Made by a program: the position numbers and the translations under genes. The notes under the pieces are model-generated. The model worked only from the letters and a program-made list of their open reading frames with translations, was not told the origin of the DNA and did no database searches. From contig CBDBEV010000001.1 of NCBI GenBank assembly GCA_965204535.1, forward strand, positions 1,568,001 to 1,632,000: a stretch of DNA of 64,000 nucleotides, read 5' to 3'. This DNA comes from a bacterium. Lineage in GTDB: Bacteria > UBA8248. Numbering within the stretch: the stretch's first letter is position 1; every line of letters begins with the position of its first letter. Below, in pieces: positions 2,646-13,138 of this stretch.

Positions 2646-5600
2646 TCAGAACCGCAGCCGCAGGTCGAGGCCGAGTTCGTACCCGGTTTCCGCCGCCGCG
2701 CTCTCGCGCCGCTCGCCCGCCAGTTCCACGCGCAGGTCCCCGCCCGGCACCTCGAAGCGGGTCCCGAGCCTGAGGCGCCGGCTTTCCCCGCCGGCCAGGT
2801 CGGCTTCCGCGAACGGCGTCAGCACCCCGCCCGCCTCGGGCAGCCAGAACCCGTAACCGACCCGCGCGTCGAGGGCCTCCTGTCCGGCGGCGGAGGGGGT
2901 CGGCATCTCCTCGGCCCACAGCGCATCCGCGCCGCCCGTCGCGGCGCCCCAGCGGGGCGCGAGCGCGAACCACAGGCCGCGCCCGTCCCCGGCGCCCGGA
3001 CCGACCCGCGCCGTCAGGCTCACCCCCTTCTCTTCCGCGCCATCCTCGCTGTGCGCCGCGAGCCAGCGCCCCCGCATCTCCACCGCAACACCCGTCGCGG
3101 CGTAGCGCACCCCGCCGGCCAGCTCGAACCCGCTGCCCTCGAGCCCGTCGCCGCCGTCGCGCCGCACCGCCGCCTCGAGGAACGGCTCGACCGACCACCC
3201 GCCCGCAAGCGCGAAGCGCCTCCTGGCCTCGATACCCGCCCGAAGACGCCAGCCCTCCGCGCTCAGGGCGTGGATCGCGTCCGGACCGGCATCGGTCTCC
3301 AGCCGCGTGACGCTCGCGTCCGCACGCACCGCCAGCGCCATGCCCGCCAGATCGGGAAGCGCACGCCTGACCCCCACCGACGCCATCCGCATCGTGAGGT
3401 CGCCCGTCTCCGCCTCCTCCCCTTCGGGCTCGTGGCGCGCCTCGCCCCAGCCCGCGCCCACCACGGCGCGCAACTCCAGGCCGTTCGCAAGCGTCCAGCG
3501 CCCGTAGGGATAGGCCGCCGTCAGCGTCGTCTCCAGGCGGCCCCGGCCGCCTGAGAGCCCGTAGTCCGCCTCGCCCTCGCCGTGCGACACCGCGAGCCCC
3601 GCCACCCAGGGACCGGCCCGCGCGTCCAGCCCCAGCCAGCCCGTGCGCAGTTTCCCGTCGTAGCGCAGCCCGGGCTCGCCCCGGCCCGCGAAACTCCCCC
3701 AGTCGCCACGGCCCCACACCGACCACAGCGGCCCCTCCGCCGCCCCCAGGAGCAGCGAGAAGGCGCTCGCGCGCAATAACTCCTCCGCTCCGATCTCACG
3801 GCCCGCCGCAACCGCCGCGCAGCCGGCCCCGAACCGTTCCGCCGCGCAGGGCCGCAGTTCCTGCGCAGCGGCAAAATCCGCCGCCGGCGCCGTCCCCGCG
3901 TCCAGCGTCACCGCCTGGCCGGCCAGCGTCAGCCCGCTCGCGCCGACATCCCCGAAACGCGCCCCGATGTTCTCCAGCGCGCTCGACATCGCCCGGCGCG
4001 CCGCCGCCGCGAGCGCGCGCCGCACCGCCTCCTTCACCCACGCACGGCGCGGGTCCGCCACCTCGATGGAGAAGGCGAGCGTGGCGGTGTCCCCGTCCGC
4101 GTCCGTAGCCGTCCAGGTGTATTCCGTCGCATCCCGCGCCCGCGACGGCGTGCCGGCCACCAGGCGCACGGCCGCGTCCAGCGTCAGCCCCGCCGGCGGG
4201 GCCGGCGTCAGGCGGTAGCGCAGCGTCCCGTCGCCGCCCGTCGCCCGAGGCAGCACGAGCGCCACCGCCGCGCCCGGCGTCCAGACCTGGTCCGCGACCG
4301 TGGCATCGCCGAAGCTCGGAGCGAGGACCGGTGCAACGCCTCCTCCTCCCCCGCCTGGGGACGTGCCGCCGGTGGGCGGGGTATCGCCGGTGGGCGGAGA
4401 ACCCTCGGTGGCCGGAGTGTCCGCGGTGGGCGGAGTGTCGCCCTCGTAGATCGTCACCTCCACCGAGGCCGGGCTGCCCGCGACCAGTCCCGCCGGCAGC
4501 GGCGTCCCCAGCGCCACCGTGAACCGCTCGTCGTCCCCGTCGTCGTCCGCCGTTGTCGATATGAACCCCGTTCGGCAGCACCTGCCGGCCGGGATCGTGA
4601 TCGACGCCAGCGTGCCGTGGTCGCCGGCTTCCGACGTGATTGCCCGTACCGTCAGCGGAATCGTCACGTCGGCAGCCAGCCCCGACGACAGCATCGCATT
4701 CACCGCCACGTCCGAACCCTCCGGCACGCGCCGGCTCACCTCGAGCCGCACCGTCTCGACGTGCGGCTCGTCGAGGTCCGTGATCCTGACCTCCACCGAG
4801 GACGGCGTGCCCGCCGCGTACCCCGCCGGCAGGCGCGCCGTGTCCAGCGCCACCGTGAACGTCTCGTCGTCCGTGTCGCTGTCCCGGTGCGTGGGGATGT
4901 TGACGAGGCCGGAGGAAACATTCTGTATGTCGGCCGCGACGTTGATGACGTACCGCCGCGTCCCGTCGGCGGGCGGCAGCGGGTCGTCCCGCTCCCCCCA
5001 GTCGGACGTCTCCGACGTGCCGTTGCGCACGATCACCGGGATCTTCACACCGCCCACCGTCCTGGTCGACACGTGCGCCCTCACCGCCACCGATTCGCCC
5101 TCCGCCACCGGGTTCGGCCTGACCCGCAGCCTGACCGTGGGGGTGTCCTGCGTGGGGGTGTCCTGCGCCTGCCGCGTTACGGTGACGGTGTAGTCCTTCG
5201 TGGTCCCGTCCTCCGCCGTCACCCGCACCGTGAAGACGTTGCCGGAGCCCACGGCCAGGGCGACGGCCCCGCTGGCCGTGCCGTCGGTCACCGCCGCCAG
5301 CGTCGTCCCCCGAAGGCCCACCTGCACCGTGGCCTTGCCCGTGTCATCCACCGTCGGCGTCAGCTTCACGTGGGTGATGCTGTTGGCCACCGTGGCCGTG
5401 TAGGATGTGGTGGCCTTGTCGAAGGCCGGCGACAGGGTGAACGGCGTGAACGTGCCCGAGGCGCTGTCGCTGCCGCCGGCCGTCAGGCCGCTCAGGTCGG
5501 CGTTGGAGGACTGGAGCGTCTGCGAGCAGGAGGTCCCGATGCTGAGCTGGACCGTGTCGCCGACGGACCAGCCCGCGTCGACGGACCAGAAGGTCTCATG

Positions 5601-6071
5601 GAAACTCGTGTCCGGGAGAGCGTAAGCGGTGGTGCCGACGCAGAACTTCAGATCCTGCGGGGGGGACGCTAGAGCTGGCTGGAGTCTTATTTCCAGTGAA
5701 TTCAGGCTCTGTTGAGAGTCGCGAACGTCCCAAACCCGTGTGAACGTATGGGTCGTGCCCCCGACCGTGAAGCTGGAGTTCGTCAACAGCGTATTGCACG
5801 AAACCGTGCTGCCCCCCGAAAGACTGTCACATCCCACGTCCTCGTCACCAAGGTCGCCGACCGTCAGCGTCGCCGACCACCACGTGGTAGCCTGCGCCGA
5901 GACGGGCGCGGCGGCGATCAGATGCAGACCGCACAGCAGCAGCGCAAGAACGGGTACGAGGAAGCAGAGGCAGGCGCGGCGGCGCCGGGGGGGCAGGTCA
6001 GGACGGCAGGCGCCTGCCGGAGTCGGAGAAGCCGATCGTTGCGCGCCGGCCCTTTGCCGGGCGCATTTCAT
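2646..6071 (-). CDS. Autotransporter-domain adhesin-like protein (cadherin-like beta-sandwich, Calx-beta-like and Ig-like passenger)
   Basis: Signal peptide ending VSA-Q; NADLSGL...VTAEDGTTKDYTVTVTR cadherin-like repeat; YTWTATDADGD Ig-like motif; WSVWGRG barrel start; terminal LDLRLRF. Start placed at ATG 6071 after GAAGAGGG. Confidence 0.85.
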   Translation of the reverse strand: MKCARQRAGAQRSASPTPAGACRPDLPPRRRRACLCFLVPVLALLLCGLHLIAAAPVSAQATTWWSATLTVGDLGDEDVGCDSLSGGSTVSCNTLLTNSSFTVGGTTHTFTRVWDVRDSQQSLNSLEIRLQPALASPPQDLKFCVGTTAYALPDTSFHETFWSVDAGWSVGDTVQLSIGTSCSQTLQSSNADLSGLTAGGSDSASGTFTPFTLSPAFDKATTSYTATVANSITHVKLTPTVDDTGKATVQVGLRGTTLAAVTDGTASGAVALAVGSGNVFTVRVTAEDGTTKDYTVTVTRQAQDTPTQDTPTVRLRVRPNPVAEGESVAVRAHVSTRTVGGVKIPVIVRNGTSETSDWGERDDPLPPADGTRRYVINVAADIQNVSSGLVNIPTHRDSDTDDETFTVALDTARLPAGYAAGTPSSVEVRITDLDEPHVETVRLEVSRRVPEGSDVAVNAMLSSGLAADVTIPLTVRAITSEAGDHGTLASITIPAGRCCRTGFISTTADDDGDDERFTVALGTPLPAGLVAGSPASVEVTIYEGDTPPTADTPATEGSPPTGDTPPTGGTSPGGGGGGVAPVLAPSFGDATVADQVWTPGAAVALVLPRATGGDGTLRYRLTPAPPAGLTLDAAVRLVAGTPSRARDATEYTWTATDADGDTATLAFSIEVADPRRAWVKEAVRRALAAAARRAMSSALENIGARFGDVGASGLTLAGQAVTLDAGTAPAADFAAAQELRPCAAERFGAGCAAVAAGREIGAEELLRASAFSLLLGAAEGPLWSVWGRGDWGSFAGRGEPGLRYDGKLRTGWLGLDARAGPWVAGLAVSHGEGEADYGLSGGRGRLETTLTAAYPYGRWTLANGLELRAVVGAGWGEARHEPEGEEAETGDLTMRMASVGVRRALPDLAGMALAVRADASVTRLETDAGPDAIHALSAEGWRLRAGIEARRRFALAGGWSVEPFLEAAVRRDGGDGLEGSGFELAGGVRYAATGVAVEMRGRWLAAHSEDGAEEKGVSLTARVGPGAGDGRGLWFALAPRWGAATGGADALWAEEMPTPSAAGQEALDARVGYGFWLPEAGGVLTPFAEADLAGGESRRLRLGTRFEVPGGDLRVELAGERRESAAAETGYELGLDLRLRF

Positions 6072-6288
6072 GCCGCCCTCTTCTTCTTCGGATGACGGAT
6101 GACGGATGACGGATGACGGATGACGGATGACGGATGACGGATGACGGATGACGGATGACGGATGACGGATGACGGATGACGGATGACGGATGACGGATGA
6201 CGGATGACGGATGACGGATGACGGATGACGGATGACGGACTGTAGCCGATGCCGCCGTCTCACGCAAGCTCTCTATACAGTTTTCCAT
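5998..6288 (-). CDS. Putative leader ORF spanning the heptamer tract
   Basis: ATG at 6288 preceded by GGGAGGG; reads through VIRHPSS repeats and overruns the autotransporter start out of frame. Confidence 0.4.
   Translation of the reverse strand: MENCIESLRETAASATVRHPSSVIRHPSSVIRHPSSVIRHPSSVIRHPSSVIRHPSSVIRHPSSVIRRRRGRHEMRPAKGRRATIGFSDSGRRLPS
6090..6236. repeat. Simple sequence repeat (GGATGAC)x21
   Basis: 21 perfect tandem heptamers counted directly. Confidence 0.97.
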
Positions 6289-6657
6289 CTTTCGAGTACC
6301 CTCCCTATCTCACTGACCCGGCAGGAACTCTATGCATGAAAACCATATTTTGTCTTGAACAATGAAAACAATTATAGCATATCCGCGACGGAATCAACAT
6401 TCTGAAATCGCGTCCGGAACGGGCGTTCAGGAATTCCCGCCTCTCACGCCCGTGTCAGCCGCCCCTCGACTGCCGCCGGACTTCCACCTGCTGCACGGAC
6501 ACCGGTTCGCCCGGCGCACACCCCATCGATTACCGGCCGGGTTGGGCGTCAAGTGCGGTGGGACCGATCGCGACGAGGGCTTTGTCTCCGTTGTCCGGGA
6601 CAGGCGCGGTCCGGTCGTCGAATCCAGGAGAATCAATCAGGCCGGCGCCGAAGCGGT

Positions 6658-7798
6658 TCACCGCTTCCCTCCGAACCCGGCGGCCAGGTCACGGCGTTCC
6701 AGCACGCCGGCCATCCCCTCGTGCCCGGGTCCGAAAAAAGCGCCCTTCACCTCACCGGCATCGCCGCCGGTCCGCATGAAGCCGTTTTCGCTCACGCGGA
6801 TCGAGTATTCGAGAGCGCCGTCGCCCCAGGTCGCGCCGGACCCGCTCACTCCCGGCGCCTCGCGAACGCCCCAGCGCTCCAGGCCGGTGAAGTCGAGACC
6901 TCCCTCGAGAGTCGCCAGATCGACCGCAAGGCGGGCGTCCCCGGCGACCGTTTCTCCCGATGGCCGCGAGATGCCCAGGAGCGCGCCGGTCCAGGTCGCG
7001 GCGCCCGTCAACGTCCGGTTGGCCGCCAGTTCGGTCGCCGGCGCCGGTCCCGAAGCCCAGGGCTGCGCCAGACCGTTTCTCAGGGAGACGCCGAAGGAAA
7101 CACCGGCGTCCGCGCCGGTGATCCCCAGATCCCCCCGGACGTGAAAGGACGCGTCCTCCCAGGGTCCGAGCCGCTCCGCGGTCATGTCTTCCGGCAAGGC
7201 GCCGGGCTCGAACCTGCCATAGGCCGCGAGCAGTGCGTCTCGATCCGCGAGGCCGAGGACGTGCGCGGGCGGGTTGGAGGGAGCGATGGGATTCAGCGTC
7301 GAGCGGGGGAAACGCTCCGGATCGGTATGGACATCGAACCCGAGGGAGTGCAGCAGTTCATGAACGACGACGTGGAGGACCGTCGCATCCGGCCAGGCCG
7401 CGTCGATAACCGATGTGTTGATCATTATGTGGCTCGATTGCGCACGGACATTTTCGTACCTCGTGTCACCTGCCCGGTAGAGTCGTCTCGGGAGCGCGAA
7501 ACCGAGAGGGTATGTGCCCGGGGCGAAGCGATAGGGCCATGACCGCCGCCTCCGCCTCGTCGGCCGCCATGACCGCCGCCTCCGCCGCATTCATCGCGGC
7601 CTCCCTCGCCGCTTCCAGCGCGCCCGGCGGCGCCCCGTTCATCGAGGCCTCCCTTGCCGGTTCCGGCGCGTCCGGCGGCGCCGCGGGAGCCCGGGGACCG
7701 CTGCCCCCGCCGCCGCAACCGGAAAGCAGAACCGCGATGGCCACCATTGTCATCGCGCACTTCATCGCAGCCCGCTTCGGACCTTTCCCGTCACGCAT
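6658..7798 (-). pseudogene. Frameshifted or internally deleted lipoprotein with zinc-metalloprotease-like motif and TbpB-like barrel
   Basis: Lipobox VLLSG-CGGG lies in one frame (ORF 7466..8158). HELLHSLGFDVH and the barrel ending GFGGKR lie in another frame (6658..7590). Break near 7530-7540. Confidence 0.65.
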
Positions 7799-7889
7799 GG
7801 TGACCCCCTCCATGTAAAGTCGTCGCAGGATTCCCCGGGCAATCGTACGCGGCACGGACACGGGCCAGGCGGAGAAGTCCCTCGCCGGA

Positions 7890-8140
7890 AGTTTTCCATG
7901 GGCGGCGCGAAACTTCACCGCTTGCCCGCGCATGCGATGCAGCGCAGGACCGCTTGTTGCTCCTCGCTCCTGAGCGCAACCGCCTTCACGCCGGGCTGCC
8001 GCACCGCCGTCCGGACCGCGCGCGCGTCGTGCGCATCGTTCCCGTTGCCACCCGTGAAGGGTCTGATCATCTTCGCCGCAGGAAGCCCGGCCTCGTTCCC
8101 CGGTTCCCGCAGCCGCCGCACGCCTCCATCGAGACCACGC
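7890..8140 (-). mobile_element. IS110-family transposase remnant
   Basis: RPFTGGNGNDAHDARAV...ALRSEEQQAVL, then ALHRMRGQAVKFR after a frameshift; matches the IS110 KPF..NKND..DA..I / KSEEQQA.L.LHR.R pattern. Confidence 0.7.
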
Positions 8141-8392
8141 GTGGCGTGCGATTGACAAAATACTCCAGGAACTCTAGTCCCTTCCCGGACTGGAATCAAG
8201 GGTTTTTCAACAGCCTCGCATGCGGCGGCCGACACTGCGAACGTTGCGGATCCAGGCCGGCCGGGTCGGGTCGCCGCCCAGCTTTCGGCGGTGGCGGAAT
8301 TGTGTTATTTTTTTCTTTTTTCGCCGAAATCGCTTGCCGTCCGAACGGCGGAAAGAAGAGAACACGAGCACCTGAAAAAGGAGGGCCCGAAC

Positions 8393-8479
8393 ATGCGACC
8401 CACTCCTGGAAAGAGCACGCCGGGGCTTGATCATCGGCTACAGTCCGTCATCCGTCATCCGAAGAAGAGGGCGGCATGA
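8393..8479 (+). CDS. Putative leader peptide MRPTPGKSTPGLDHRLQSVIRHPKKRAA
   Basis: AAGGAGGG RBS before ATG 8393; contains 2 GTCATCC units; TGA overlaps the next ATG (ATGA at 8476-8479). Confidence 0.5.
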   Translation: MRPTPGKSTPGLDHRLQSVIRHPKKRAA

Positions 8480-10461
8480 AGTGCGCCCGGCAAAGGGCCG
8501 GCGCGCAACGACCGGCTTCACCGACTCCGGCAGGCGCCTGCCGTCCTGGCCTGCGCCCCCGGTGCTTCCGCGCCCGCTTCTCCCTTCTTCCCGCCCTCGC
8601 GCTGCTGCTCGGCGTGCTCGTTTCACCTCACGCGGCAATGGCGGACGAGAAGGCAGAGAAGCCACGGGACACGCGGCACGAACAAACGGGCACGAACGGC
8701 GCTGACGACCTGATGGGCGGCGCCGGCGACGATTTGCTCGTCGGCAGGAGAGGCAACGACTACTTGCGCGGGAAGGGGGGCGACGACGAGTTGCGCGGCG
8801 GCCGGGGCAACGACCTGCTTCGGGGCGGTGCCGGCGACGACCTGCTGCGCGGCGGCCGCGGCAACGACGTGTTGCGCGGCGGCGTCGGCAACGACGTGCT
8901 GCACGGCGGGGACGGCGAGGACCGCTTCGCGTTCGCGACCGGGGCTTCGGGCCACAAGATCATCGCCGACTTCGAGGCCGGCGACGTGATCGCGCTGGGC
9001 GCGGACCCGGAGGGCGGCTCCTGGCCCGCGGTTGCCGACATCGTGGCCGGCGTGGCGGCGCGGGACGGCCGCTACACGTACACCCTGCGCCCCGGCCTGA
9101 CGGTGGAGACGGACACGCCGCTCGGGGCCGGGGATTTTATGTTCCTTGCCCACGCCGTGGCGCTGCCCGACCGCCATACCCTGGCCGGCTGGCTGACCGA
9201 CAATCCGGACGGGAGCATGACGGTGCCCGCGGGCGAACACCGCGACGGGGGCGGCGTGCGCTTTGCCTGCCCCGCGGACGGCGCCGACTGCAGGTTGACC
9301 GTGACGGCGGCGGGCGGGGCCGTGACCGTCTCCTCGACCGGCGGCGCGGCCACGGCGGGACCCGAGCCGGCGGCGAGCGCCAGGCTGGCCGGCAAGCCGC
9401 CGCCCCCGCCGCCTGCGCAAACGGCGCCCTCGACGCCGACGGGCGCCACGGCGCACGGGGTCGCCGGCGCCATCGTCAGCCTCGGGGACGATGCGCTCAC
9501 GGACCCCTTCGTCAGCTGGCCCGTCGCGGACCGTCCGCTCACGCTCGGGGTCCCGTACCACGTGCTGCCGCTCTCCCTGCACAAGCTGAGCAAGGGCATC
9601 CTCGGCGGAGAGCTCGACAACGACGACGACCCGTCCACCCCCACCGGCTTCGCCGCGGCGGACGCCCCTCCGGCGATCTCCGGATGGTCCGGCAGCGCCC
9701 GGGAGTGGCGCCGCACCGACGGGGCCGGCGTCACGACCGTCGACACCGTGACCCTCTACGCGAAGGCGGGCTCCGGGGAGACGTATCTCACCTTCGGGTG
9801 GTGGGCGCGGGTTCCCGATTCAGGCACAGCCGGCGCCGGGACGTTCGGGAACGACCCGACCCACCACAGCATCCACAAGACCAGGAGGAATCCCCTGTCG
9901 CTCAACGCCGCTTGGCCGCGCGGCGCCAACGCCTTCGCCGCGGGCCGGCACCATTACTGGCCCGGCTGGGCGCAGCTCGACGCCCTCGCCGGCACCGCGA
10001 CCTACGCCGGAGCCGCCGCCGGCCTGTACTCGGAGCGCGCGGCGGGCGCGCGCGACGGCGCCTCCGGCGCGTTCACGGCGGACGCCGCCCTGACGGCGGA
10101 TTTCGACGCGAAGTATGTCCGGCTCTCGGGCCGCATCACAGGCTTCCGGGACGCTTCGGGCGCCTCGCTCGGCGACTGGACGGCGAGGCTCGCCAACGAC
10201 ACCGGCGGCCTGACCGGGGGCGGTTTCAACGGTGGCGGTTTCGCGGTCAGCGGCAACACCGCCGGCGCCGCCGACGGGCGCGGCTGGAGCGGCGGATGGG
10301 TCGCCCAGTTCTTCCGCCGCTCGGCCGCGGATCCCCAGGCGGCGCATCCCGCCGCGGTGGGCGGGGCGTTCCAGGCGCACCACGGCACGCCTGCGATGGC
10401 GGCGTCGGACGATGCGGGCTTCGTCGGCGTGATCGGCGCCTTCGGGGCTGAGAAGCGGTAG
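8476..10461 (+). CDS. Secreted protein with RTX Ca-binding repeats and TbpB-like C-terminal barrel
   Basis: Signal peptide ending PHAAMA; tandem GGxGxDxLx nonapeptides; YLTFGWW, GTATYAGAAAGLY, GAFTADAALTADF; terminal GAFGAEKR. Confidence 0.8.
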   Translation: MKCARQRAGAQRPASPTPAGACRPGLRPRCFRARFSLLPALALLLGVLVSPHAAMADEKAEKPRDTRHEQTGTNGADDLMGGAGDDLLVGRRGNDYLRGKGGDDELRGGRGNDLLRGGAGDDLLRGGRGNDVLRGGVGNDVLHGGDGEDRFAFATGASGHKIIADFEAGDVIALGADPEGGSWPAVADIVAGVAARDGRYTYTLRPGLTVETDTPLGAGDFMFLAHAVALPDRHTLAGWLTDNPDGSMTVPAGEHRDGGGVRFACPADGADCRLTVTAAGGAVTVSSTGGAATAGPEPAASARLAGKPPPPPPAQTAPSTPTGATAHGVAGAIVSLGDDALTDPFVSWPVADRPLTLGVPYHVLPLSLHKLSKGILGGELDNDDDPSTPTGFAAADAPPAISGWSGSAREWRRTDGAGVTTVDTVTLYAKAGSGETYLTFGWWARVPDSGTAGAGTFGNDPTHHSIHKTRRNPLSLNAAWPRGANAFAAGRHHYWPGWAQLDALAGTATYAGAAAGLYSERAAGARDGASGAFTADAALTADFDAKYVRLSGRITGFRDASGASLGDWTARLANDTGGLTGGGFNGGGFAVSGNTAGAADGRGWSGGWVAQFFRRSAADPQAAHPAAVGGAFQAHHGTPAMAASDDAGFVGVIGAFGAEKR

Positions 10462-11360: not shown

Positions 11361-13016
11361 CTACTCCTCCTGCCGGTTCGCGCCGAACGCGCCGACCATG
11401 AGGCCATCATTCCCGTACGTCGAATGGAACACTCCGCCCACGACCTTCGGAACGCCGTCGTCGCCGTTGTCCATAAGATGACCGTTCCACCCGCCGTCGC
11501 CGGCGGCGGCCGTCCCGTCGATGGTCCACACCGTCTGCGCATACTCTGAACGGATGAAACTGATCGCTATGTCGCCTGTATTCGTGATGGAGGACTCCTT
11601 CAGCTCGACGGACCAGTTCCGCGCCCGGCCGTCCGCGCCCGTGAAGTCGTTTATGGCGCCCGAGATCATGTCGGTGTGGAAATCGGCCTCTAACGTCGCC
11701 GTCGCGGTGAAGCGGCCGGCGTCGTTCGTCCCCCCGGTGGGGCTCGAGAGAGCGTACAGGCCGGCGGCGCCGCCCCTGTACGTCGCCGTGCCGCGCAGGG
11801 CCGCGATGGTGGCCCCGGTGTCCGGGAGATCACGCTTCAGAAATAATGAGTACGCGGTATAGGTGTCGTCCGCGGACTTGTGGAGCCACCAGCCGTAGGA
11901 GGCATACTCCGTATCCGGCGAACTCATGACCCGGGCGTCCGGGTCCGCGGGCTTGAACGTCCAAACCGCATTGGCGGCGTCGAACGCGCCGGCGGCGGTG
12001 ACTCCGCCGAGATTGAAGCCCGGCCCGGCATGGCTGGCCGCGCACGTGCTTCCGTCAGCGGGATCGCAGCTGTACGTGCCCGGCACCCCGTGATAGCTGC
12101 CGGGGATCATCACGGCGACGTTGTTCTCGGGCAGCTTGAACCTCTTCAACCCCGCCGTATGGTCGAAGCTCGGGCTGGCAACCCGGCCGGCGGTGCCCTC
12201 GGTGGTCGTTTCGTCCAGCGTTCCGCCGGCGAAGCTGGCGCTGTACTGCGTCGAAAACTTCTCGCCCTCCTTCGGCTCCTCGACGTTCGAGTAGAAGACC
12301 GCCTCGTGTGTGCCACCACCTTCGGGCGCGGCCGTGTACCTCTTGCCTTCCCAGCCGTGGTTGGCGGCAACCATCGTCTGCTTGTCTTCCGACAGATAGT
12401 ATCTCGCAATTCCGAAATTCAGCGTTAAGCCGTCCGTTTCGAGGTCGGGATAGGTGCATCTTGGGTCAGATTCAAAGCAGGTTGATGGTGGAAGCAAAGG
12501 ATCATCGCCGAAGCCGTCGTACAGCTTCCTGGCGGTTTCGATCATGTCCGCCCTTGCCGCGTCGGCCGCCGCCTGCATCGCCGTCATGCGGGCCGTCCTG
12601 GCATTGTGGAAACGGGTCTCGAGCGCGGTGACGGTTCCGGTGTTCGCGGCCTTCTCCTCCGCCGGAACGCCGGCCGCCGCCGCTATCGCCGCCTTCGCCG
12701 CCGCGACCGCCGCCTCCGCGGCGCTCACCTCGGCGTCGGTGGAGTCGTCGTCCACCTCGCCTACCGCCGCCTGGGCGGCATCGAGCTTCATTTTGATGTC
12801 CGCGCGCTCCATGGCCAGGAGCTCCGCCGCCGTGACGCAAGCTCCGTCCATGTACCTGCCGCCACCGGCTTCACATGCCGCTTGCGGGTCCGGCATCTCG
12901 GCCGGCGTTTGCGCAGTGCCGCCGCCCCCGCCGCAGCCCGCCAGCGCAATCGTGAACGCCCCCGCCAGCGCGAAGGCGTAAAGCCTGTTTATCGGTTTCT
13001 CATATTTGAACGTCAT
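11361..13016 (-). CDS. Surface lipoprotein with Ala-rich stalk and TbpB-like barrel (paralog B)
   Basis: LAG-CGGG lipobox; YASYGWW, GTATYRGGAAGLY, MVGAFGANRQ. Confidence 0.8.
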   Translation of the reverse strand: MTFKYEKPINRLYAFALAGAFTIALAGCGGGGGTAQTPAEMPDPQAACEAGGGRYMDGACVTAAELLAMERADIKMKLDAAQAAVGEVDDDSTDAEVSAAEAAVAAAKAAIAAAAGVPAEEKAANTGTVTALETRFHNARTARMTAMQAAADAARADMIETARKLYDGFGDDPLLPPSTCFESDPRCTYPDLETDGLTLNFGIARYYLSEDKQTMVAANHGWEGKRYTAAPEGGGTHEAVFYSNVEEPKEGEKFSTQYSASFAGGTLDETTTEGTAGRVASPSFDHTAGLKRFKLPENNVAVMIPGSYHGVPGTYSCDPADGSTCAASHAGPGFNLGGVTAAGAFDAANAVWTFKPADPDARVMSSPDTEYASYGWWLHKSADDTYTAYSLFLKRDLPDTGATIAALRGTATYRGGAAGLYALSSPTGGTNDAGRFTATATLEADFHTDMISGAINDFTGADGRARNWSVELKESSITNTGDIAISFIRSEYAQTVWTIDGTAAAGDGGWNGHLMDNGDDGVPKVVGGVFHSTYGNDGLMVGAFGANRQEE

Positions 13017-13138
13017 TAAGCGAGTCTCCTGAATACATGGAAAGGAACTTGACCTGGCCAATTCGATTGGAGAAGGGCCGACACCCCTCAAAGGGCTGCT
13101 TTAAGGGGGTTGAAAAACCCCTGAAGATGGGAATTGCT

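Follow-up and report, generated by a model that had tools for sequence, protein, structure and literature searches.

A heptamer-containing 5' coding module common to secreted-protein genes of an uncultured bacterium, a candidate frameshift switch

Unrelated secreted-protein genes of this genome (G000, with its sequences C1 and C2) share a 5' coding module composed of a strong start, a tract of GTCATCC heptamers, a second start within ATGA and a long signal peptide. We consider that this module is probably (about 0.6) a repeat-driven frameshift switch, which would be ON when the leader is fused in frame to the gene. As in contingency loci, the 5' coding region contains the non-triplet unit (fusion through the tract in 9 of 12 intact genes; leader ATG in 18 of 19 copies), and the targets are secreted or surface proteins with signal peptides (autotransporters, RTX-repeat proteins, a lipoprotein). 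The module is likely a mosaic, and the likelihood of switching is judged from the comparison of copies, not from variation within a population. Coordinates are positions in the window, i.e. the whole stretch of 64,000 nt analysed, unless they carry a prefix. The window holds two copies of the module, in divergent orientation, with the following features.

8378..8384 (+): leader Shine-Dalgarno AAGGAGG (GGAGG 8380-8384), 8 nt 5' of ATG 8393
8393..8479 (+): 28-aa leader ORF, -1 register, homologous to the 5' coding end of fused copies
8447..8460 (+): two GTCATCC heptamers
8461..8479 (+): purine tail, moderate second Shine-Dalgarno (GAGG 8467-8470; duplex -6.3 kcal/mol) and ATGA junction
8476..8643 (+): long basic n-region of the MKCAR type, a hydrophobic core that starts at aa 37, and an A-M-A cleavage site predicted by eye
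8476..10461 (+): 661-aa secreted protein with N-terminal RTX calcium-binding repeats (Pfam PF00353)
5998..6288 (-): autotransporter leader ORF, 96 aa, +1 register, running over the second ATG
6090..6236 (-): 21 GTCATCC heptamers of the autotransporter copy, with flanks as in the RTX copy
2646..6071 (-): autotransporter with cadherin-like domain and beta-barrel, from the second ATG

Leader and junction of the RTX-repeat gene

The leader Shine-Dalgarno of the RTX copy forms a duplex of -10.5 kcal/mol with the anti-SD core; a value of -9.6 is reached by 2.6% of 3000 random 17-mers. The stop codon of the leader ORF (TGA, 8477-8479) overlaps the ATG at 8476 of the 661-aa ORF, giving ATGA. A 28-aa leader with a strong ribosome-binding site and ending in this way on the RTX gene start had been proposed in the original prediction, and it is confirmed in the sequence. 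Positions 7900-8472 are reproduced letter for letter in the contigs of two samples, one sample covering on to 8720 and one being perhaps the source of the assembly itself. Since the register is the same in the contigs of two samples, that of the RTX copy is not an assembly error. No 7-nt indel was found at this copy in the contigs of four runs, contigs being an assay that drops rare variants. The contig depth, a weak measure, was 162 over the RTX gene body and 28 over the leader in run X2, and 12 and 12.8 respectively in run X1; other strains may have the RTX gene behind a different upstream region.

The RTX repeats of the 661-aa protein lie at aa 69-172, downstream of the signal peptide. RTX toxins are type I secretion substrates with repeats near the C-terminus and no N-terminal signal peptide. 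The label "RTX gene" given at first therefore holds for the repeats and not for a toxin, the NCBIfam RTX_toxin profile scoring 71 bits against a cut-off of 1000 and in the repeat region only. Likewise, "extended signal peptide" is right as a description of the long n-region and wrong as an assignment to the type V ESPR, whose profile (PF13018; accession from PMC6232127) has no match at E 0.001 in either window protein read from the second ATG. The signal-peptide core DNA of the RTX copy also occurs at nine other places in the genome. The RTX protein has no match at E 1e-20 in 41 related genomes, so that orthologous leader DNA could not be read there.

The distance from leader start to junction is 83 nt at the RTX copy. 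Aligned with the 64-nt leader type, this copy carries differences of +1 and -11 nt, both outside the repeat, and it is because of these indels that it stands in the -1 register, i.e. in the ATGA state. It would fuse at repeat numbers divisible by three, six of the seven other scanned copies doing so at n mod 3 = 2. With two units, the tract is shorter than is expected of an unstable one.

One may ask whether the RTX copy is an OFF or near-silent allele, its leader being out of frame and its second start too weak. One added repeat would bring the leader into frame, no promoter-like site was found upstream (0 sites in a scan of 5900-8700), and a duplex with the anti-SD of -5.8, close to that of the second site, is reached by about 20% of random 17-mers. 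We nevertheless hold this to be quite improbable, because the 661-aa frame is unbroken and two samples agree on the register, and because a weak Shine-Dalgarno can suffice for reinitiation at ATGA (PMC6728339). In the mechanism that we propose, the RTX copy, too short for frequent switching, would be translated from ATG 8476 through its own moderate Shine-Dalgarno, with termination-reinitiation probably assisting. It is plausible, as a prediction from the sequence, that the leader may feed ribosomes to 8476 at the RTX gene itself; the ATGA overlap of this copy is likely a local fallback and not the main switch of the family.

Registers of the module copies and use of the second ATG

The genome was searched by pattern, BLAST and nhmmer, which gave 13 heptamer-keeping copies. 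Searching up to 51 related genomes added five copies in G002 and one in G011, i.e. 19 in total; the module occurs in 3 of 51 genomes, all of one genus. A portable leader and signal-peptide segment, first proposed for two unrelated secreted proteins, is thus more widespread than claimed, with 13 copies here and six in two relatives. The register of each copy was taken from the distance between the leader start and the junction codon, the leader ATG being chosen by its sequence context and not by its frame. The exception is C2:462756, which has no ATG and for which an in-frame TTG was used.

Over the 19 copies, 12 are in frame, four at +1 and three at -1. Seven were left out of the main count: C2:462756 (no leader ATG); C2:478497, C2:481732, C2:314129 and L078 (in none of which a long gene begins in the module); C2:1453682 (decayed gene); and L079 (frameshift before the hydrophobic core). 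The 12 that combine a leader ATG with an intact long gene comprise nine fused in frame, two at +1 (12 and 21 units) and one at -1, the RTX copy. The binomial P for nine of 12 at an expectation of 1/3 is 0.004, which is overstated since the copies are kin. Among main-count copies with one or two repeats, seven of eight are fused.

Leader ATGs are accompanied by a Shine-Dalgarno duplex of -6.3 kcal/mol or better in 17 of the 18 copies that have one, and this leader Shine-Dalgarno surpasses the second one in 17 of 18. This upstream ATG, together with its Shine-Dalgarno, is the conserved start of the module. According to the original prediction, random leader frames and missing upstream starts in other copies would speak against its leader; the census found frames that are not random and an upstream ATG in 18 of 19 copies. 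The fused copies show seven combinations of lead, repeat and tail (64/11/15, 64/20/12, 58/2/15, 52/1/13, 52/2/15, 63/2/13 and 89/1/15), each summing to a multiple of three, and the heptamer is read in all three frames among them. Spacer lengths compensate one another, and most intact genes are fused.

This conservation of frame bears on a different reading, in which the repeat would belong to an untranslated leader and modulate expression through RNA structure or stability, as at hmw1A, the second ATG being the true start and the frame irrelevant. Heptamer tracts act in this manner at Haemophilus hmw1A (PMC12721329); a conserved Tyr-Asn just 5' of the repeats of the sister modules (see below) could be a -10 box read as codons; and both +1 copies have intact genes. 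However, the compensating indels preserve the frame, and the second ATG is dispensable in three intact genes. In addition, -10-like boxes are present about 90-135 nt 5' of the leader ATG in five of eight scanned copies, so that the leader start would be transcribed. Nor is the tract an untranslated one within a long hairpin as in the hmw1A type: the frame is conserved through it, the fold of the last repeats with the start region (not of a whole long-array leader) gives a z of -1.06, and Rfam returned 0 matches. We therefore regard a role in an untranslated leader as unlikely.

The second ATG is kept in 12 of 19 copies, and the letter that follows it is A in all 12. As GTCATCC brings a stop codon into none of the three frames, a leader that runs in the -1 register of such a copy must end in ATGA; the exact ATGA ending is not beyond chance, i.e. 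one in three. In the seven other copies the second ATG has become ATC, AAG, AGA or ACG. It is gone in three intact fused genes (510, 1695 and 1694 aa), which have no Met between the repeat and the hydrophobic core. Part of the family can do without the second ATG. For P0066 (about 17 repeats, called as a 1960-aa protein) and P0057 it is out of frame with the called protein, and in repeat-less siblings (G002; C2:2390928) the upstream ATG is fused and the homologous junction GTG out of frame. Conversely, 10 of 18 related long proteins (autotransporters) are called from a MxCAR-type Met like that of 8476, the starts of database proteins being gene-caller choices; the 8476-type ATG thus probably serves as a true start in this sub-type, of which both window genes are members.

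These counts weigh on the coupling model of the original prediction, taken here to mean that the module is ON in the ATGA-coupled register, with a leader peptide dedicated to regulation. At the RTX copy the exact overlap, the strong leader Shine-Dalgarno and the intact downstream gene agree with it. But this register is found in one of 12 intact genes, nine of 12 being fused, and the only other true ATGA copy (C2:1453682, one unit) lies 5' of a broken reading frame. Moreover, there are fused genes without a second ATG, and of 17 homologues of the RTX protein, 16 of which were read, P0022 (75% identical over the searched region) has its leader fused in frame. Indels outside the repeat account for the register of the RTX copy, and homologues do not keep the overlap, whose conservation is the mark of coupling used in PMC3711429. 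Across the family, coupling is not the rule for the ON state, and we give this model very little credence.

A switch with three levels would keep a role for the second start, an ATGA that has a Shine-Dalgarno of its own. In such a switch the fused state would give a long signal peptide and the coupled state a short one by reinitiation, while in the +1 state the ribosomes of the leader would overrun the second start and suppress it; the RTX copy would be fixed in the coupled state. The 12 ATGA junctions that are kept are consistent with it, as are the position of both window copies in the best class of second Shine-Dalgarno (-6.3), the intact RTX gene with its register unchanged in two samples, and the calling of 10 of 18 relatives from the MxCAR Met. 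Translation is commonly coupled at ATGA overlaps (PMC6728339), and upstream ORFs work by coupling or by occlusion (PMC13285730). Against this, the -1 register is absent from the four long arrays, and the second ATG has changed to four different codons in seven copies. Four folds looking for a hairpin that hides the second start gave none better than shuffles (z 0.20, 0.65, -1.06 and -0.70), and the opening energy of the second start of the RTX copy (8.6 kcal/mol, against 10.0 for its leader start) is not special. A three-level switch is accordingly a minor possibility in our estimate, well below the two-state frameshift switch.

Tract length and comparison with known systems

In the 4.56-Mb genome, perfect arrays of 4-11 nt units with at least 4 copies number six, and all are heptamers: four of GTCATCC (11, 12, 20 and 21 units) and two of AGCCGAG (16 and 8 units). 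In all six cases the array sits at the 5' end of a gene of autotransporter type. Of the four long GTCATCC arrays, two stand at +1 on intact genes and none at -1; the two at +1 fit OFF alleles, and also fit a role independent of the frame.

The 12- and 20-unit GTCATCC copies are 100% identical over 1000 nt upstream and 300 nt downstream, for which haplotypes or an assembly duplication are possible. They may be haplotypes, since they sit in a region of C1 (C1:183067-221523) where the two ends of C2 (C2:1-34752 and the far end) recur at over 99%. In this one pair, copies whose flanks are identical differ in tract length. We propose that polymerase slippage would shift the tract by 7 nt at a time, turning one length class in three ON.

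The C1 repeat region has one autotransporter where C2 has three in tandem, which points either to an alternative haplotype or to a collapse by recombination. At the C2:2305485 copy, a 7-nt deletion seen in contigs was considered as a switching event and rejected, a one-repeat paralogue explaining it best, as well as a 146-nt joint. The (AGCCGAG)16 and (AGCCGAG)8 arrays, at G000 C2:26224 and C2:559142 (-), lie at the 5' ends of two genes for autotransporters of roughly 2800-2900 aa. The frame of the 16-unit copy is open from an ATG further upstream; the 8-unit copy has an extra frame break before the signal core.

Translational phase variation driven by simple sequence repeats generally has one ON class for two OFF classes, with exceptions where there are several starts (PMC4235727). 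The proposed frameshift switch resembles Neisseria NalP and MspA (polyC; PMC4235727) in that a non-triplet tract lies within the coding region of genes for secreted or surface proteins, autotransporters among them. It differs from them by its heptamer unit, by a start and signal-peptide module common to unrelated genes, by the second ATGA just after the tract, and by its host, an uncultured genome without sign of being a pathogen. With H. influenzae lic2A (Dixon 2007, as cited in PMC4235727) it has in common more than one possible start near a 5' tract, which may give more than two levels; in lic2A the alternative starts lie 5' of the tract in different frames, whereas here the alternative start lies 3' of the tract and overlaps the -1 stop.

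With H. influenzae hmw1A/hmw2A (PMC2651432; PMC12721329) the module shares a heptamer unit, repeated 8-21 times or more and placed upstream in a large gene for a secreted, adhesin-like protein. The hmw tract, however, is in the 5' UTR, as is the case for the known heptamer switches, and acts with a long hairpin and RNase III, while the present one follows a strong start codon and its frame is conserved. An in-ORF frameshifting heptamer has been reported once, in hmw1a, 3.5 kb inside the gene. In Streptococcus gallolyticus Pil1 (PMC3894217) a repeat also alters the frame and length of a translated leader 5' of surface-protein genes. Pil1 acts through a transcription terminator, whereas here the leader is usually part of the protein and terminator-like sites in 5900-8700 number two (2.3 by chance), neither at a leader. 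Finally, the RTX copy shares with termination-reinitiation at ATGA and with coupling upstream ORFs (PMC6728339; PMC13285730) the exact overlap and a Shine-Dalgarno inside the upstream ORF, but the overlap is not conserved among homologous copies (one of 12 intact genes).

No publication on this module was found among open-licence PMC and bioRxiv papers searched by titles and the starts of abstracts, subscription papers being outside this scope. If the frameshift switch is real, phase variation, mostly known from pathogens and from units of 1-5 nt, would be used by an uncultured lineage with heptamers, and would be packaged as a reusable gene start common to unrelated secreted proteins. Heptamer repeats are over-represented in bacteria and little studied, with an excess in large GC-rich genomes (PMC4692102); the switch would offer one candidate role for this excess.

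Spread of the module over unrelated genes

The module is found at the head of autotransporter genes, of two genes with RTX repeats, of a gene for a lipoprotein (C1:730973), of one for a HEXXH protein of G002 and of small secreted genes. The same leader and long signal-peptide segment are common to unrelated secreted proteins. In the window, the block that the original prediction saw in both the RTX copy and the autotransporter is indeed present, over 172 nt at 86.6%. Its 15-nt 5' flank occurs twice (8432 +; 6251 -) against 0.12 expected, and two occurrences were reached in 0 of 100 shuffles. Between the two proteins only the first 33 aa align (84.8%), the two other blastp pieces having E values of 4.4 and 6.0. 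Over the n-region the two window genes are nearer to each other than to any other copy, which suggests a local exchange. Both join a GTCATCC-type 5' half to a MxCAR-type 3' half at GGCATGA, and we propose that the module would have spread by recombination at this common junction and in the signal-peptide DNA.

Such mobility can also be combined with three levels of output. GTCATCC, AGCCGAG, CCAGCGG and TCAGCGG tracts would then be interchangeable between a strong start and an internal ATGA, and a secretome family would cycle between fused, coupled and occluded states, the module being swapped by recombination among autotransporters, lipoproteins and RTX-repeat proteins and the RTX copy being frozen in the coupled state. 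We consider this portable form doubtful, to the same degree as the three-level switch itself.

The CCAGCGG and TCAGCGG units belong to sister modules, deduced from peptide repeats of database proteins (P0025, P0036, P0038, P0039, P0057, P0061 and P0069) that can be encoded as perfect heptamer arrays only by one or the other. These arrays occupy the same position, just before the MxCAR start, with about 8, 8, 8, 11, 11, 12 and 27 units as implied from the peptides. Fused calls among them are in frame by construction; P0036, with 12 units, is an out-of-frame 98-aa product. A conserved Leu-Thr-x7-Tyr-Asn lies 5' of the sister repeats and may correspond to promoter boxes that are translated as codons.

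A search of 51 genomes for the sister-heptamer pattern brought no match. In public collections, pattern scans gave 12 metagenome and 11 genome matches, among which only L067, the G002 copy, has the flanks of the module, the 22 others being chance matches. Matches to the junction pattern that were read in G015, G049, G025 and G041 (six loci) are unrelated, and three further ones outside G000 and G002 were left out. Searches with the +1 leader peptide brought one true member of the module (P0083) among 250 proteins, the rest being unrelated heptamer translations.

Some minor observations concern individual copies and their neighbours. In the autotransporter copy, a GTG at 6261-6263 (-), 27 nt 5' of the array, is in frame at 21 units with a weak Shine-Dalgarno (-2.9), and is a possible leak in the +1 state. 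C2:478497 and C2:481732 (-) are module remnants 5' of small cysteine-rich secreted genes with their own Shine-Dalgarno and start; one of their leaders reads through in frame and the other stops after three codons.

Positions 6658-7590 and 7466-8158 (-) look like one lipoprotein gene split over two frames, with the signal and Cys in the first frame, and HEXXH and a barrel-like end in the second; a similar protein of G002, L071 (likeness judged by eye), is a single ORF of 584 aa. Four window proteins (1745-2635, 6658-7590, 8476-10461 and 11361-13091) end in a similar Gly-Phe-Gly-Gly/Ala followed by a basic or polar tail. They may be surface cargo of the Slam type, and two of the four have weak TbpB barrel matches, below the cut-off.
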